Sequence record: MK639187
Reading direction: 5' to 3' (one strand)
DNA: 64,000 bases
Source of the DNA: Shigella phage SSE1
The notes beneath the pieces were generated by a model, which saw nothing but the letters and a program-made list of their open reading frames with translations, was not told where the DNA came from and did no database searches. Positions 18,674-46,484 of the stretch are shown here, piece by piece. Both the position numbers and the translations under genes were made by a program. How positions within the stretch are numbered: position 1 is the stretch's first letter; each line of letters starts with the position of its first letter.

Positions 18674-19309
18674 ATGAAAACTACTCCTATTACTATCGCT
18701 ATTGACGCAATCATAAAACAAGCTTCTTCTTTGGCCGCTATGGCCAAAGTAATTAGTCAAAACCCTGCTCGTTATAATGCTATTCTAGAAACTCTTCGAC
18801 GCCCAGGGCTTAGTAATTATGAAAGCCGAGTAATTATTACAGGTGTTGGTAAGAATGCTAATATTGCAACTAAAGCTTCTGAGACATTTGCTTCACTCGG
18901 TATCCCGAGTATGTACTTGAACACCGGGCATTATTCTCACGGTGATGCAGGATTCATTGCGCCTAATGATGTGTTGATTCATATTAGTCGTTCTGGTAAA
19001 ACTGAAGAAATGATAGGCGTGGCTAAGCATCTTAAAATGATTCGTCCGAACGTCAAACAGATTCTGTTGCATTGTAACCCAGACATTCCACAAGAAAATG
19101 AAGCCCTTTTTGATTACTCTTTCTGTACAGGCATCGCAGTAGAGGTTGATGAGAATTCTCTGGCTCCGACTATGTCCACTACATTATTGTTAGCGCTTAT
19201 CGATACGTTTGCTATCAACCTTTCGTCTGAACGTGGATTTACCTCTAATGACTTCCTTAAGTTCCACCCTGGCGGTGCACTAGGTGCCATGTTACGAGGC
19301 GAACAATGA
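18674..19309 (+). CDS. SIS-domain sugar-phosphate isomerase, KdsD/KpsF (arabinose-5-phosphate isomerase) type, no CBS domains
   Basis: 211 aa; GVGKN, SRSGKTEE, APTMSTT, FHPGGALG motifs. Confidence 0.75.
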   Translation: MKTTPITIAIDAIIKQASSLAAMAKVISQNPARYNAILETLRRPGLSNYESRVIITGVGKNANIATKASETFASLGIPSMYLNTGHYSHGDAGFIAPNDVLIHISRSGKTEEMIGVAKHLKMIRPNVKQILLHCNPDIPQENEALFDYSFCTGIAVEVDENSLAPTMSTTLLLALIDTFAINLSSERGFTSNDFLKFHPGGALGAMLRGEQ

Positions 19310-19449
19310 AAGCAATAACAATAGGACTTTTACTATTGATGCTTGTCATGACTATCTACTGGAGCTTAACGGCTCCGGTAATGATTCCGACACTTGTAAT
19401 TGGATGGATTATGATTGGACTACAAGCAAAGTATGAATGCTTTAACTAG
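19306..19449 (+). CDS. Small membrane protein
   Basis: 47-aa hydrophobic ORF read by hand; ATG overlaps SIS gene stop. Confidence 0.35.
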   Translation: MKAITIGLLLLMLVMTIYWSLTAPVMIPTLVIGWIMIGLQAKYECFN

Positions 19450-19490
19450 AATAGTGTACAATACTCCTACTTACCAATGAGGACCACAAC

Positions 19491-21176
19491 ATGAAAAAAG
19501 CTGTTATTCTTGGTGCTGGACTGGCAACTCGTTTGTATCCAATAACGCATCATATTCCTAAGGTGCTTGTTAACTATAAACAAGACACTATTCTGAGCAA
19601 TTTGTATACAATTTATTCTGACCTTGGCGCAGATGAAATTATTGTAGTAGTTCATTCAAAATTTGCTGAAACTGTTCGAGCTTATTGTGAGCAAGAAGGG
19701 TTCAATGTGACTATTCGTACAGTTGATGAAGCGTATGGATCTGCTTATGCTCTTGCTAAATTACACAAAGATTTAGACGGCCATAATGTAATTGTTAACT
19801 GGTGTGATATTATTCCCGATTTTGGTTCATGGTCTTGGAATGTTAACGCAATCTATGTTAAGGGTAACGAATGTCGATATAATTTCGACGGTGAAAATAT
19901 CACTAACGTAGGTTCAACAGGTGGTAATGTTGTAGGAATTTATCAGTTCAAAGACTGGGAATTCTATATGGGTTCTACTGATGAGGAAATTCATGAATAC
20001 TGCAAAGGACGTGATTTCGTAGAATTCCTTTACAGCGGTGCATTCAATAAATCAGAGCTTATGAATCTAATTGATTTAGGTGATATGCCTAAACTTGAAA
20101 AAGCTCATGAAGTTCGTGAACTTAATCGTAGTTTTAATGCAGTTGAAATTGGTGAAGAAACTGTAACTAAATTCGCATTAACTGAACAAGGTCGAGCTCT
20201 TCAGAAAGATGAGATTTCATGGTATCTTAAAGTGAAATCAGATTCAGTTCCTCAGTTAGTTTCTGTTAATGAAAATAACTTTGAAATGGAACGCATTAAA
20301 GGTAAGCCGGCATTTGAATATATTAAATCCAAATCAAGCCTTGCTCGTCCACAAATTGTTGATGCAATTTTAGACGCACTGAAATTCAGCACAGACACTT
20401 ATTTTGTAAGTCCTGAAACTGTTCGTCGTGATTTCACTAAAGAATTCTATACTAAAGTTATTGATCGTTGTGAAAGTATTCAACCGTTGATTGATTCATT
20501 TGGTAAAATCACACATGTGAACTACACTAAGATTGGGCGTCTGAAGCCAATGCTGAAACAAGCTTTAGAACACCTTATTCGTTATCATAACCGTTCTCAG
20601 GGACAGTACTCTGTTATTCATGGTGACCCGAACTTCAGTAATACTATGATTACTGATAACGGCGAAGTCAAGTTTATCGACCCTCGTGGATATTTTGGCG
20701 AAACCAAAATTTACGGGCCAAAATTGTATGATGAAGCTAAAGTGCTTTATGCTGTTTCAGGTTATGATGAATTCAACGCTAATCCGACCTGGGGCCAGTT
20801 TACTATTGATGAAACAACTTGTAATGTGACTATTAACATCAATCCATTAGTTTACAAATATGGAAAGATGAGTTCGTTTAACGAGTATCATCATTTGGCA
20901 GTGGCAATTATCTGGATTGCATTAGGTGGTTATTTCAAGAATAATCCACTTAAAGCGGTAGCCGCATATTATAAAGGTATGGAACTTCTGACTAAGCAAT
21001 TACGTAACATGGGCCGTGTACTTCAGGACGGCTCTATTAGTTATGACGTAGCAGAACCTGTAACGGCTACTCTGATTACAAAAAATCCTGGTAAATGGGT
21101 ACTAACTGATAAAGAAACTGGTGTTTCCTATCGTCCAATCGGTGGCGATATCACTCATCAATGGGAACGAATCTAA
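19491..21176 (+). CDS. Bifunctional sugar-1-phosphate nucleotidyltransferase / anomeric sugar kinase
   Basis: 561 aa; N-terminal ILGAGLATRLYPITHHIPKVLV (NTP-transferase G-loop); C-terminal VIHGDPNFSN and IDPRG (APH/AmgK-type kinase). Confidence 0.7.
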   Translation: MKKAVILGAGLATRLYPITHHIPKVLVNYKQDTILSNLYTIYSDLGADEIIVVVHSKFAETVRAYCEQEGFNVTIRTVDEAYGSAYALAKLHKDLDGHNVIVNWCDIIPDFGSWSWNVNAIYVKGNECRYNFDGENITNVGSTGGNVVGIYQFKDWEFYMGSTDEEIHEYCKGRDFVEFLYSGAFNKSELMNLIDLGDMPKLEKAHEVRELNRSFNAVEIGEETVTKFALTEQGRALQKDEISWYLKVKSDSVPQLVSVNENNFEMERIKGKPAFEYIKSKSSLARPQIVDAILDALKFSTDTYFVSPETVRRDFTKEFYTKVIDRCESIQPLIDSFGKITHVNYTKIGRLKPMLKQALEHLIRYHNRSQGQYSVIHGDPNFSNTMITDNGEVKFIDPRGYFGETKIYGPKLYDEAKVLYAVSGYDEFNANPTWGQFTIDETTCNVTININPLVYKYGKMSSFNEYHHLAVAIIWIALGGYFKNNPLKAVAAYYKGMELLTKQLRNMGRVLQDGSISYDVAEPVTATLITKNPGKWVLTDKETGVSYRPIGGDITHQWERI

Positions 21177-21562
21177 TGCACCGTGTAGAAAACATGCTTA
21201 ATCTTTGTTTTGATGTCGACGATTGTATAACAGAGTGGAATAACAATCGTGATTACGTGAACTTCAAGCCAGACGTCGAAATGGTGACTGCCATTAATGC
21301 CCTGTATGATGCAGGGCATACCATAACGCTTTACACTGCTCGCGGTATGAAGTCAGTAGGTCCTGGTCGTATAGCAATTGACATTCTCCCAAGTCTGATT
21401 CAGAACTTGGCAAACATTGGCTTGAAGTACCATAATTTGCTAACACATAAACCAGTATATGATTGGATTATCGACGACAAAGCTATGCGTCCTGACGAAT
21501 TCAAAGCTCTTATGAATAAAGGCGAATTCGAAACATTTAAATCATATAAACCGAACCTATAA
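21176..21562 (+). CDS. HAD-like phosphatase (putative)
   Basis: 128 aa from ATG 21176 (TAATG overlap); FDVDD motif I-like, TLYTAR, IIDDK. Confidence 0.45.
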   Translation: MHRVENMLNLCFDVDDCITEWNNNRDYVNFKPDVEMVTAINALYDAGHTITLYTARGMKSVGPGRIAIDILPSLIQNLANIGLKYHNLLTHKPVYDWIIDDKAMRPDEFKALMNKGEFETFKSYKPNL

Positions 21563-21608: not shown

Positions 21609-22778
21609 ATGCAAAAAATGAATACTTTTAAAATCGGAACGAATTTTGATTTAGCTCTTCTTGATAAAATCGTAGAGCTCAATAAAACTTATCCTAATAG
21701 CTTGATAAACGAAGTATACGGCTCTACAAGAGAAATGGCTTTTGTAGCAGCCAGACCTGATTTTAGGCTTCCTGACGTTGACAAAAAGATGTTAGAAGAT
21801 TACGTTAAACGTTGTAACGAATTAGGTATTTGCTTTAACTATACACTCAACACGATAAATCCTGGTTCAAAAAGAGAACTAGTCGAGTGGAAGAAGAAAG
21901 CTATTCAGGATTATGTTCAGTATCTTTGGTCAATAGGCGTATGGCGTATTACTATCGCTAACCCTGTTGTTATGGAAATTGTTCGTGAAGTCAATAAAGA
22001 CATTGAGATTGAAGTTTCAACAATTCTACATGTCGATGCTGTAACTCAAATCAAATACTTACATGACCAATACAATATCAAAAAGGTCTGCTGTGGAATT
22101 CATAAGAACCGTTCAGTTTCTTTCCTGAAGCGTGCAGCAGAGTTTTGCAATAAGAACAATATAATATTTGAAGTTCTTGTAAATGAGTTCTGTTCTAATG
22201 CTGGTAAAGGGTATACAACACATTGTAGCTATCGTGACTCTTGCTATATTTTCCATAGTACTGATGTTACAGTAGATGATGCTAAATCCTTAAACGGATA
22301 TCCTATGCAGCACTGTATTAAAGCTCGTGATACAGACCCATTTAACTGGTTGAGAACTCGTTTTGTTCGTCCTCAAGATTTGAAACTTTATAATGATATT
22401 GGTATCACTCAATTCAAAGTTTCAGGACGTACAGGTAGCACAGACTACATTTTGAAAGTTCTTGAAGCTTATGCTTCTGAAAAATTTGAAGGTAATTTGT
22501 TGGAATTGTGGAAGCCTTTAGAGACCATTTTCACTCTTGAAAATGAGACCGAGTTTTCACATACGGTAAATATTGAAACCTCTTTGTTAGATGGCTTTTT
22601 AGAAAAAAGGTGGTTCAAACATCCAGATTTCGATTGTGCTAATGAAATCTGCGGGACGACGTGTACATATTGTGAAAGATATTATAAACGTCAGTTATCT
22701 AAAAATGGGTTATCAGAAAATTCTATATCTATTATTGATATAACTAACTCTGACGACGCTTTGAGGTACCCAGAATGA
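21609..22778 (+). CDS. Cys-rich protein of unknown function
   Basis: 389 aa; Cys clusters EFCSNAGKGYTTHCSYRDSC and CANEICGTTCTYCERY. Confidence 0.55.
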   Translation: MQKMNTFKIGTNFDLALLDKIVELNKTYPNSLINEVYGSTREMAFVAARPDFRLPDVDKKMLEDYVKRCNELGICFNYTLNTINPGSKRELVEWKKKAIQDYVQYLWSIGVWRITIANPVVMEIVREVNKDIEIEVSTILHVDAVTQIKYLHDQYNIKKVCCGIHKNRSVSFLKRAAEFCNKNNIIFEVLVNEFCSNAGKGYTTHCSYRDSCYIFHSTDVTVDDAKSLNGYPMQHCIKARDTDPFNWLRTRFVRPQDLKLYNDIGITQFKVSGRTGSTDYILKVLEAYASEKFEGNLLELWKPLETIFTLENETEFSHTVNIETSLLDGFLEKRWFKHPDFDCANEICGTTCTYCERYYKRQLSKNGLSENSISIIDITNSDDALRYPE

Positions 22779-22936
22779 TTTCTAGAAAAACTTTTAACCA
22801 CCAACTTAACGAAGAGATTTTGACTACGAAAATTAACAGCAACGAACAAATTCTTAAAAAGGCCCTTATGGGCCTGTTTGAAACTAAAGCGGCTAAAGTG
22901 ATTAAAGAAACCTGTTCAACTAGAATACTACGCTGA
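22775..22936 (+). CDS. Small ORF, possibly a frameshifted gene (continuation to 23015 in +1 frame)
   Basis: 53-aa ORF; downstream frame codes a protein-like tail but has no start codon. Confidence 0.3.
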   Translation: MISRKTFNHQLNEEILTTKINSNEQILKKALMGLFETKAAKVIKETCSTRILR

Positions 22937-23056
22937 TGCATTTCTTCATAGTGTTCTTGGAAGTATCGATGCTGAAGCTTTACGTTATATCAACATCGCT
23001 AAGAAATTCAAATAAGCTTTATGAATTGAGTATATAATAACTGTATTGAGGTAAAC

Positions 23057-23773
23057 ATGGGAAAACATAACACAATGAAATATATTAAAGCCGCAGATTT
23101 TCAATCCGCATTTAAAGTTGTCAATCGTGAAATTTTAGAAAACCCGGAATTCGTTACTGATTCTCGTATTGGACGTTGTAATGAAATTGGGTCTATGACA
23201 GTAGTTGTTGATACCCCTTCATCATTCAAAATGTCAGACCCACGTATTAATCGCATCTCTTATGAATATGCTGAAGATTTCTGGAAATTTATGATTTCTG
23301 GTGGTACTGATGCAGAAGAAGCATTTAAGGCATATCCTAACGTTGCTAAATTTATTTCTAAACCTAAATCAGATGCTTTGCCTGCGAACTTCAACACTTT
23401 CTATGGTCCACGAATTGCGGCCCAGTTACCAGCTCTTCTCAAAGAACTTAAAGAGAAACCTAATTCACGAAGAGTTGTGTTTCAAATTCTTGAAAGTTCA
23501 GATCAGGCTTTGCTTGATTCGGACGAAACACTTGAATATCCATGTACTGACTCAGTGACTTATTATATTCGTGATGGTAAGCTTTATACCCACTGTCATA
23601 TGCGTTCTCAGAACTGTGCTGTTGTTATGCAGTTGGATTTTTATCTCCAAGGAAAATTACTTCATTATATCGCTAACGAATGTGGTGTAGAAGTTGGTGA
23701 TTATACTCATACCATGGTAAGTGCCCATGTGTTTGAACGTGATTTTGATTATGTTAAAGGATTCCTTGACTAA
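23057..23773 (+). CDS. 42: dCMP hydroxymethylase gp42 (thymidylate synthase family)
   Basis: 238 aa; PNSRRVVFQ and YPCTDSV...HCHMRSQN align with the T4 gp42 pattern. Confidence 0.85.
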   Translation: MGKHNTMKYIKAADFQSAFKVVNREILENPEFVTDSRIGRCNEIGSMTVVVDTPSSFKMSDPRINRISYEYAEDFWKFMISGGTDAEEAFKAYPNVAKFISKPKSDALPANFNTFYGPRIAAQLPALLKELKEKPNSRRVVFQILESSDQALLDSDETLEYPCTDSVTYYIRDGKLYTHCHMRSQNCAVVMQLDFYLQGKLLHYIANECGVEVGDYTHTMVSAHVFERDFDYVKGFLD

Positions 23774-24672
23774 TGGCTATTTTCCGCGTACCTATCTTGA
23801 GTATGCGGTCTTATGAAACTGGACAGTATGCTATCCTTAAGGATGGCAACTTCCAACTTCATTTGCACCGTGCTAATCCAGGTGATGTGATTACATATCC
23901 ACGTAATGCATCTGATATTAAAGAATGCGAACGTCTTTTTCCAGAATTTAAGTTTGTTCCATTATGGTATAAAGATAACGCGTATAACACTCGTAAATAT
24001 TTCTGGTCTGAAAATGAATTTGTGGTTGATTCATTAATTGCTTATTATGATTGTGATTTTCTAATCACAGATATCACCGGATATGACGGCTCTTTTGATG
24101 TGGAATTCAATTTCAATATCACTGCAGATCCTAATAAACCACGTTTTTATATTGACGAATTCTTAAAAACTGATATGTTGTCGGTTAATCGTTCACTTCA
24201 AACTACTGTGTTGAATGAACGTCAAAAAGAAGTGCTGGTTAACGCAGGTGCAGATGGTAATAAGATTATCGTAACGCAGAAAGTTATACGTCCTTCCATC
24301 ATGCAGCGTCTTGTAGGTGATTTGGCTCCTATTCATCTAGATGGTATTTTTCATCCATTTCGAATTAGTGACCCGTGCTATCGTTTTGAACAAGTGGTTG
24401 AATGCGCAATTCAATTAGGTCAACCGCTTTATATAACTGATCCAAATAATAGTTTCGACAGAAATAAGTATCCTGAAGAAGCGCTGATTCGAATTTTTAA
24501 TCCAACTAAAACTGAGTACTATCAAATTCTTAAAGGACGTCCGAAGATTCAATATTTCGAAAATCCTGAAGAAGTATTCCATCCAGGTCTTGGCGAGTTC
24601 ATCTACTTTAACGCTTTAATTTCTTCGCCGTATAATATACCTAAATATGAAGATGTCGTAATCGAGGAATAA
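23773..24672 (+). CDS. Unknown protein in the beta-glucosyltransferase position
   Basis: 299 aa, start overlaps gp42 stop; no similarity to T4 beta-gt recognised. Confidence 0.55.
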   Translation: MAIFRVPILSMRSYETGQYAILKDGNFQLHLHRANPGDVITYPRNASDIKECERLFPEFKFVPLWYKDNAYNTRKYFWSENEFVVDSLIAYYDCDFLITDITGYDGSFDVEFNFNITADPNKPRFYIDEFLKTDMLSVNRSLQTTVLNERQKEVLVNAGADGNKIIVTQKVIRPSIMQRLVGDLAPIHLDGIFHPFRISDPCYRFEQVVECAIQLGQPLYITDPNNSFDRNKYPEEALIRIFNPTKTEYYQILKGRPKIQYFENPEEVFHPGLGEFIYFNALISSPYNIPKYEDVVIEE

Positions 24673-24673
24673 A

Positions 24674-25222
24674 ATGGCTAAAATTATTTTAGTAGATGGC
24701 CCGGATAATGCTGGTAAAACAACTTTCATTAATGACATAATGGAAATTAGTGAAAGATATGTAAAGATTGATTTCCCTAAACGAACAGTTGATGGACGTT
24801 TCGATGTTAAGTCTCGAAATGAAGTTGGCTGTTTCGAAACGATGTTGAATTATTTAGACCCTACTAAGATTTATCTGTTAGACCGTGGATATATTAGTAA
24901 CTGGGTTTATGGACGTATTCGACAAGATGCGGACTCGGTTCTTGACGTTTATGAACAGGATTATGTTCGTCTTTGCCAAAACCATGATGTGTTCACAATT
25001 ATTTTAACACGTAACGAAATGACTGAAAGTTTTGAAGACGACCTTATTACTTTGTCTTCGTTCGGTTTTAATACAGTCATTTCATATTTTGAAGAGTTTG
25101 CAATTCATAACGAAATCCAAACGTATCAATTACTTAATCATGATGGTGCTAACAAAGTTATAGGATTTAATGCAAGCGAACGTAATAATTTGATTACAGA
25201 AATTATCAAATGGGCTCGTTAA
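24674..25222 (+). CDS. P-loop kinase, thymidylate/deoxynucleoside kinase-like
   Basis: 182 aa; Walker A DGPDNAGKTT, DRGY motif. Confidence 0.55.
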   Translation: MAKIILVDGPDNAGKTTFINDIMEISERYVKIDFPKRTVDGRFDVKSRNEVGCFETMLNYLDPTKIYLLDRGYISNWVYGRIRQDADSVLDVYEQDYVRLCQNHDVFTIILTRNEMTESFEDDLITLSSFGFNTVISYFEEFAIHNEIQTYQLLNHDGANKVIGFNASERNNLITEIIKWAR

Positions 25223-45383: not shown

Positions 45384-46484
45384 ATGAAAGTTATGTTTAT
45401 CCCATCTCGTGCAGTCCCATTTAATCCTGACCGTGTACAAGGTGGCCTTGAAGCAGTACATTTAAATGTGTTGAAATATCTTGTGTCCATCGGTGCTGAT
45501 ATTGATTATATCGGCTTTGATAATGACACGTTTGGTGACTGGAAAGTTACACACCATCCTGTTGGTCATCTGGCTAAATTCAGTCTAGGTATGAGTTATA
45601 CTATGGCTCGTAAGATTGTTGAACTAGCCAGCATTAATGAATACGATTTCGTTGTTACAATGGAACCGACCAAACTAACGGTCCAAGCAATTAAAGATGC
45701 TGGACTCTCTAAAGTTCATAAGAATTTTATGGCTACACCGTTTGAACCGGTGTCTCGTGGTATTGTTCAAATTTGGGATCAGACTATCCAGATTCACAAG
45801 AACGGTGGGAAGAGCTATGCTCCTACTAAAGCATTCCGTGAATTTGAACGTAAATATTGTCATATGACTTCAGCTCTTACTGACAAAATTGATTATGACT
45901 ACTGGCGTGAAAATCCATTATTTGAACCTGATGACTACCCGGTTATTTGTTTGAATGAAAAACCTGAAGTTCTTCCGGCAACTGAGTTGATTATTAGTGC
46001 TCAACGTTATGACACTAAGATGCGTCGCACTGATGTTGCTCTTGAAGCAATTAAAGCACTAGGCGAAAATGGTATTGGTTATTGTCCAAGCAAATGGGCA
46101 CCACCAGCTAAATATCCTGTTATTATTGATGCTCCACACAGTGAAATCATGGAACGTCTTAAAACAGCTAAAGCACTTATTAATACATGCCCTGACACAG
46201 GTACGGTAGAGAATAGTTCTATTGAAGCTATCTCTAAAGGTGTCCCCGTAATCCAGTTAGTTTTTAAGGATTATCCTCATGCGACATTCGAATACGACCC
46301 AGATACTGTGCGTGTAGAAATTGATTCCTCTACTCCTAAGAAAGAAGTAGTTGCGCTTTACACAAAAGCTGTATTAGAATTCACTGACACATACGAAGCT
46401 CGAGTTAAACGTGCTGAAGCAGTATGGAAGAAGTATAACCGAGATGCAGTTGTTGCGATGTGGGATAAAATCTTCACAGCGTAA
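45384..46484 (+). CDS. Putative GT-B-fold glycosyltransferase
   Basis: 366 aa; TGTVENSSIEAISKGVPVI resembles the GT-B donor-binding E-x7-E region. Confidence 0.5.
   Translation: MKVMFIPSRAVPFNPDRVQGGLEAVHLNVLKYLVSIGADIDYIGFDNDTFGDWKVTHHPVGHLAKFSLGMSYTMARKIVELASINEYDFVVTMEPTKLTVQAIKDAGLSKVHKNFMATPFEPVSRGIVQIWDQTIQIHKNGGKSYAPTKAFREFERKYCHMTSALTDKIDYDYWRENPLFEPDDYPVICLNEKPEVLPATELIISAQRYDTKMRRTDVALEAIKALGENGIGYCPSKWAPPAKYPVIIDAPHSEIMERLKTAKALINTCPDTGTVENSSIEAISKGVPVIQLVFKDYPHATFEYDPDTVRVEIDSSTPKKEVVALYTKAVLEFTDTYEARVKRAEAVWKKYNRDAVVAMWDKIFTA

Follow-up and report, generated by a model that had tools for sequence, protein, structure and literature searches.

We analyzed a stretch of 64,000 nucleotides (nt) from Shigella phage SSE1 (sequence record MK639187), hereafter called the window, with attention to a plus-strand open reading frame (ORF) of 299 amino acids (aa) at 23773..24672. 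The ORF starts with ATG and encodes a protein modelled with a GT-B fold, the orthologue of gp46:47 of phage RB69 and a putative 5-hydroxycytosine alpha-arabinofuranosyltransferase 1. Its start is overlapped by the stop codon of the upstream gene, which encodes a 238-aa protein of the ThyA superfamily (gacTAATGgct), and from this arrangement the two genes are predicted to be translationally coupled. On the other side, the gene for a 182-aa thymidylate-kinase-like protein starts 1 nt past the stop of the ORF, and homologues of uvsX, gene 40 and gene 41 lie downstream of it. In phage T4, the order at the same place is 42, b-gt, segA and uvsX. The initial annotation had placed the ORF in the syntenic slot of T4 beta-glucosyltransferase (beta-GT), and this placement was correct.

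The window is from a Mosigvirus, and the 7 kb around the 299-aa ORF were about 98% identical to Escherichia phage F2 and approximately 150 other RB69-like phages. When compared with RB69, residues 1-182 corresponded to ORF047c (98%) and residues 185-299 to ORF046c (99%). The gene is uninterrupted in the window, unlike in the RB69 record. Lee et al. (NAR 2026, PMC13326640) attributed the separation of ORF047c and ORF046c to a sequencing error that split one gene, and modelled the joined product as gp46:47, "arabinosyltransferase 1". The protein matched PHROG 3891, a family with no assigned function (E=2e-155), and tblastn found homologues in 348 phage records, including phages of Escherichia, Klebsiella, Enterobacter, Acinetobacter, Serratia, Proteus and Yersinia. 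Repeating tblastn at E<=10 added little except weak matches in Rhizobium phages. An exhaustive HMMER profile search with the family against 1.84 billion proteins returned 228 cluster representatives, indicating that the family is narrow and mostly phage-borne. The ORF is thus a real, conserved gene.

Structure prediction, which the initial annotation had suggested as a check, recovered a GT-B fold: two Rossmann-like beta/alpha/beta domains with a cleft between them, matching solved GT-B enzymes strongly. In the structure comparison, the figures were 17.0 for BshA, 16.4 for a PglA-type transferase, 15.7 for PimA, 14.8 for the second transferase of phage HY126 (9iqz) and 13.3 for T4 alpha-glucosyltransferase, and T4 beta-GT was absent from the top 60 matches. 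Foldseek against the Protein Data Bank (PDB) ranked first the UDP-GlcNAc 2-epimerases (E about 2e-6), which also have the GT-B fold, together with MshA, with poor TM-scores. Against the viral models of BFVD, it returned both halves of the RB69 protein, a homologue from an Acinetobacter phage and numerous viral glycosyltransferases.

Residue conservation was counted over 49 sequences of the family. Invariant in the N-terminal domain were S10-M11-R12-S13, in the loop that follows the first strand, K23-D24-G25-N26 and a number of arginines. In the C-terminal domain, F193-x-P-F-R197, T222-D-P-N225, K246 and H270-P-G272 were invariant, and residue 275 was always acidic (E/D). As judged from their position in the secondary structure, the conserved C-terminal residues may correspond to the elements that bind diphosphate and ribose in GT-B enzymes.

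The product of the upstream gene (23057..23773, +) matched Pfam Thymidylat_synt and, over the full length, the PDB entries 9iqc/9ir2 (E=2e-161), which are apparently the HY126 enzyme because the codes are in the same series as 9iqz, labelled "phage HY126 glycosyltransferase". The initial annotation had called this gene gp42; the product, however, was 98% identical to RB69 gp48 and only 25% identical to T4 gp42. In the experiments of Lee et al., RB69 gp48 produced 5-hydroxy-dCMP and used a flavin cofactor and molecular oxygen to do so (PMC13326640). The gene is assigned as a flavin-dependent 5-hydroxy-dCMP synthase and not as a dCMP hydroxymethylase, and the modified base is therefore arabinosyl-5-hydroxycytosine. 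This replaces the 5-hydroxymethylcytosine (hmC) modification to which the initial annotation had linked the ORF. In RB69 DNA, both mono- and di-arabinose are attached through an ether link to 5-hydroxycytosine (5hoC) (PMC13326640; for the base also PMC13390438), and an earlier assignment as arabinosyl-hmC (PMC6024577) has since been corrected (PMC13390438). We also observed that many GenBank records still label genes of this type as thymidylate synthase or dCMP hydroxymethylase.

To examine the gene context in other genomes, eight proteins of the window were used as tblastn queries on 63 related loci. In nearly every locus having upstream DNA, a ThyA homologue was found about 700 nt upstream of the glycosyltransferase (GT) homologue, and the thymidylate-kinase-like gene was directly downstream of the GT homologue in most of the loci. 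The isomerase, uridylyltransferase/kinase and HAD genes described below were present in enterobacterial, Acinetobacter and marine T4-like phages. Environmental IMG/VR loci (L033-L046) and two complete phage genomes of about 150 kb (L062, L063), whose GT homologue was 26% identical to the 299-aa protein, kept the ThyA-GT core, in part with the kinase gene, and no arabinose-nucleotide genes were found within 10 kb of the GT in any of them. In these loci, other sugars are probably attached to 5hoC. A published counterpart is Rhizobium phage RL38J1, in which gp215, "galactosyltransferase 1", follows gp216, an experimentally confirmed 5-hydroxy-dCMP synthase, and precedes the nucleotide kinase gp214 (PMC13326640); unlike in the window, the sugar on 5hoC is a hexose, and genes for arabinose are absent from the vicinity. 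The loci lacking arabinose genes, together with the hexoses of RL38J1, suggest that the acceptor, 5hoC, and not the sugar is what defines the family.

A further relative was found in Shewanella phage Thanatos, where TH1_063 is 47% identical to the 299-aa protein and the gene order is ThyA, GT, kinase-like and U32. Thanatos DNA is mono-arabinosylated, and the phage has a single arabinosyltransferase, at the position of TH1_063 (Lee et al., PMC13326640). The combination of mono-arabinosylation with a single transferase is the best genetic argument that the family of TH1_063 makes the base-proximal bond.

In the window, the 299-aa ORF co-occurs with the genes for UDP-arabinose, the isomerase, the kinase/uridylyltransferase and the HAD phosphatase, all on the plus strand at 18674-21562. 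The first (18674..19309) encodes a SIS-domain protein (Pfam SIS), the homologue of RB69 gp55, with 100% tblastn identity to RB69, where it is annotated as arabinose 5-phosphate isomerase. The second (19491..21176) encodes a bifunctional, AfhE-like sugar-1-phosphate nucleotidyltransferase/kinase of 561 aa, the counterpart of RB69 gp52:53, with Pfam matches to NTP_transferase and kinase-like families and NCBIfam matches to uridylyltransferases. The RB69 gp52:53-type enzyme makes UDP-arabinofuranose, and the HY126 orthologue was reported as a UDP-arabinose pyrophosphorylase (PMC13326640). The third (21161..21562) encodes an AfhF-like HAD-type sugar-bisphosphate phosphatase, the counterpart of RB69 gp51 (PHROG 1238; NCBIfam capsule biosynthesis phosphatase; PDB 9iqw, E=2e-87), whose role was given in PMC13326640. 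Far from this cluster, a second, GT4-like glycosyltransferase of 366 aa is encoded at 45384..46484 (+). It is the homologue of RB69 gp3 (ORF003c) and matched PDB 9iqz over the full length (E=2e-247), with no Pfam or NCBIfam match. RB69 gp3 was proposed to add the second arabinose (PMC13326640).

From the GT-B fold, the conserved synteny with a base-modifying enzyme and the RB69 orthologue published as a putative arabinosyltransferase, the 299-aa protein is very probably a sugar transferase of the phage cytosine modification pathway. We further consider it likely that it is the base-proximal DNA-modification glycosyltransferase of this RB69-like phage, placing arabinose onto 5hoC. For the RB69 orthologue, papers of 2025-2026 have already described gene, fold and proposed role, and no new system is claimed here. 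Lee et al. proposed gp46:47 and gp79 of Acinetobacter phage DLP3 as the initial glycosyltransferases placing arabinose on the nucleobase, the published assignment for gp46:47 being computational (PMC13326640). Apart from the uninterrupted gene in the window, the 299-aa ORF shows no difference of substance from these two. In the Durham Collection paper, a putative arabinosyltransferase is placed inside the Mosigvirus sugar gene cluster (PMC13390438). According to a secondary source, Bas46 became sensitive to a defence system encoded on a plasmid when "the arabinosyltransferase Aat", which may be either of the two transferases, was deleted. The initial annotation had suggested a second transferase or an accessory factor for the modification; the transferase part is supported by the fold, the synteny and the RB69 orthologue, but the protein is more likely the first, base-proximal enzyme, the second being that at 45384-46484.

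In the pathway that we propose, the ThyA homologue would make 5-hydroxy-dCMP as the source of 5hoC, while the isomerase, the kinase/uridylyltransferase and the HAD phosphatase would supply UDP-D-arabinofuranose (UDP-Araf). The 299-aa protein, as a compact and probably retaining GT-B enzyme, would then move arabinose from UDP-Araf to the 5-OH of 5hoC, giving 5-O-alpha-arabinosyl-cytosine. Retention of configuration would give the alpha linkage, as reported for the first sugar (PMC13326640). The second, GT4-like transferase would extend part of the mono-arabinoside to di-arabinoside, and the arabinosylated DNA resists restriction enzymes and CRISPR-Cas. We infer that the 299-aa protein, and not another one, would make the first glycosidic bond, with UDP-Araf as the presumed donor and either 5hoC-DNA or the mononucleotide as the acceptor.

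Several results weigh against this assignment. The sequence searches connected the protein to no recognized family, as the initial annotation had stated: Pfam gave no match for it or any of 48 relatives, and for GT families such as Glycos_transf_1 and Glyco_trans_4 none even at E<=10, NCBIfam gave none, and no PDB sequence was matched by the single sequence or the family profile. With hhalign, the family profile reached a probability of 0.3% with T4 beta-GT and of 0.4% with the second GT of the window. The EX7E motif of GT4 enzymes was not intact, as position 267 is K/T/L/N/F, while E/D275 is kept and H270 is invariant instead. The protein is also acidic, with an isoelectric point (pI) of 5.05 and a median of 5.1 in the family, in contrast to the basic T4 beta-GT (pI 9.05). 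In the literature covered, which did not include He et al. 2026 or Mahler et al. 2025, no demonstrated activity of a gp46:47-type enzyme was found. Single purified DLP3 transferases given UDP-Araf or UDP-Arap did not arabinosylate 5hoC-DNA (data not shown in PMC13326640), and Lee et al. cannot tell the mononucleotide from DNA as the acceptor of the first sugar (PMC13326640). TH1_063 did not glycosylate plasmid DNA, dCMP, dCTP or cytosine, none of which carried a 5-OH group; the activity reported for it was formation of UDP-xylose from UTP and xylose-1-phosphate (PMC12838424).

Natural fusions of the GT family were found among its members. Eight carried a kinase-like domain (P0229, P0230, P0231, P0240, P0244, P0252, P0256 and P0218), as a C-terminal extension in seven and an N-terminal one in the other. 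These extensions contain an EGFDRIGKD(S/T) segment, which we read as a possible variant P-loop, and two of them gave weak matches to Pfam Thymidylate_kin (E=1e-4 and 1e-2). The strict pattern G..G.GK[ST] had no match in the extensions, and phmmer with the window kinase (24674-25222) against the fused proteins returned nothing. Seven other representatives (P0139, P0150, P0151, P0152, P0165, P0168 and P0222) carried an N-terminal KdsC/HAD-like domain (DFDGIF...GDDIYD). The fusion loci examined were L067, L068 and L069, and the contigs for P0230, P0151 and P0139 were short only. Through these fusions, the transferase is physically linked to the nucleotide branch of the pathway as well as to the sugar branch.

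The neighbouring gene of the window (24674..25222, +) encodes a P-loop nucleotide kinase of 182 aa, the homologue of RB69 gp45, which matched the thymidylate kinase family PHROG 761 (E=5e-45). Because it is strictly linked to the transferase, its role may be specific to the modification. One such role would arise if the first sugar were added before replication: the GT would arabinosylate 5-hydroxy-dCMP to 5-O-arabinosyl-dCMP, and the kinase-like protein would phosphorylate the bulky product for incorporation by the polymerase. The tightly packed order of ThyA, GT and kinase-like genes, conserved from coliphages to marine T4-like contigs, is consistent with consecutive steps on a nucleotide, as are the GT-kinase and kinase-GT fusions and the acidic protein, so different from T4 beta-GT. 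The T4 gp1-type deoxynucleoside monophosphate kinase of RB69 already handles 5-hydroxy-dCMP, so that a second kinase needs another job, and the inactivity of single GTs on 5hoC-DNA, with the acceptor question left open by Lee et al., would also be accommodated (PMC13326640). The kinase fusions are compatible with glycosylation of the nucleotide; however, since the fusion partners come from both branches, including the HAD phosphatase-like domains of the sugar-donor branch, the fusions may mark a shared pathway and not consecutive steps, and they are suggestive instead of strong evidence. Glycosylated deoxynucleoside triphosphates are generally poor polymerase substrates, and to our knowledge, which is based on T4, every characterized phage DNA glycosylation is post-replicative. 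A route through 5-hydroxy-dCTP exists as well, since 5hoC itself enters DNA when the hydroxylase and the gp1-type kinase are expressed together, and the later arabinoses are added on DNA (PMC13326640). We therefore regard transfer at the nucleotide level as unlikely, although if true it would be the first nucleotide glycosylation before replication known in phage DNA hypermodification. Charge was also considered as a decider between DNA and nucleotide acceptors and was rejected, because the second GT of the window has a pI of only 6.2 although its family acts on DNA.

The activity reported for TH1_063 raised another explanation, in which the 299-aa protein would be a UDP-pentose pyrophosphorylase making the activated sugar. 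Brandt et al. (AEM 2025, PMC12838424) incubated His-tagged TH1_063 with UTP and xylose-1-phosphate and detected UDP-xylose by liquid chromatography-tandem mass spectrometry. The reported activity is at odds with the fold, as the protein is modelled with a GT-B and not a nucleotidyltransferase fold, and no NTP_transferase profile matched the 299-aa protein or its 48 relatives. The cluster already has a genuine enzyme with the NTP_transferase domain, that of 561 aa at 19491-21176. As "no enzyme" was the only control in the TH1_063 assay, a uridylyltransferase of E. coli may have co-purified. Under this explanation, Thanatos would also be left without a transferase for its mono-arabinosylated DNA (PMC13326640). 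Thus, a pyrophosphorylase is an unlikely reading of TH1_063, and for the 299-aa protein we consider it very improbable. The top Foldseek PDB matches to UDP-GlcNAc 2-epimerases, which have the GT-B fold as well, would similarly allow an epimerase or another enzyme that modifies sugar nucleotides to tailor the donor. We give this explanation hardly any weight. Both were rejected on fold, context and redundancy.

The base-proximal arabinosyltransferase that we prefer can be compared with the known DNA glycosyltransferases. T4 beta-GT (b-gt, GT63) occupies the same slot between the ThyA homologue and uvsX, has a GT-B fold and, like the activity proposed here, puts a sugar on a modified cytosine. 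Its acceptor, however, is hmC, and the 299-aa protein is unrelated to it beyond the class of fold and falls outside GT63. T4 alpha-glucosyltransferase (GT72) and the bacterial GT4 retaining enzymes (sucrose-phosphate synthase 6kih, BshA, MshA and PimA) showed 8-13% identity to the 299-aa protein, which is shorter by about 60-100 residues and has H270-P-G...E/D275 in place of EX7E. RB69 gp3 and HY126 9iqz differ in having no sequence similarity to the 299-aa protein, in the location of the gene beside rIIA and in the proposed acceptor, which is arabinose and not the base.

Expression of the block was considered from its sequence signals. The consensus of T4 middle promoters combines a MotA box with a TATAAT element, and a MotA-box-like AAGCTTTA followed by an 11-nt spacer and TATAAT was found at 23014..23038 (+), 18 nt upstream of the ATG of the ThyA homologue. 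This possible T4-type middle promoter, if MotA-dependent, could drive the ThyA, GT and kinase genes as one unit. No plus-strand terminator was found inside the block; the scan for sigma-70 promoters and terminators was at chance level. A small ORF at 22775-22936 (+), between the U32 gene and the ThyA homologue, is the counterpart of RB69 ORF049c (79 aa). Compared with RB69, an extra A in an A-run at about 22908 cuts it to 53 aa in the window, which reflects a genuine frameshift or else an error in sequencing the homopolymer in either genome.

The U32 gene of the window (21609..22778, +), the counterpart of RB69 gp50, matched Pfam Peptidase_U32 and weakly UbiU in NCBIfam. In several non-T4-like or divergent contigs (L052, L053, L059, L067 and L068/L069), a U32 gene adjoins the GT or the GT-kinase fusion, and no ThyA homologue was detectable in the 13-20 kb of these contigs. 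The U32 genes near GT homologues were located at L052:10954-12051, L059:10885-11973, L067:12301-13401, L068:10179-11276 and L064:26927-28063. Across lineages, the proteins were 47-49% identical and had ten cysteines in common, all invariant, among them a C-terminal CX4CX3CX2C. Members of the U32 family include RlhA, which forms 5-hydroxycytidine in 23S rRNA, TrhP and UbiU/UbiV, which are oxygen-independent Fe-S hydroxylases. By analogy to these relatives, the phage U32 protein is a candidate oxygen-independent C5 hydroxylase, which would provide an anaerobic route to 5hoC. Lee et al. called RB69 gp50 only a "sugar or heterocycle reductase" (PMC13326640), and no link between phage U32 genes and hydroxylation was found in the literature searched. 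If true, a U32 hydroxylase would let gut phages make 5hoC anaerobically.

The fusions and the clusters without ThyA go beyond the literature covered here, and they provide handles on the acceptor question and on the roles of the kinase-like and U32 proteins. In a large group of T4-like phages, arabinosyl-5-hydroxycytosine in the DNA gives protection against restriction enzymes, DNA glycosylases and some CRISPR-Cas systems; among the protected phages are candidates for therapy directed at E. coli, Klebsiella, Acinetobacter and Serratia. Formation of the bond between base and sugar, probably by the 299-aa protein in the phage studied here, is the committed step of this protection.

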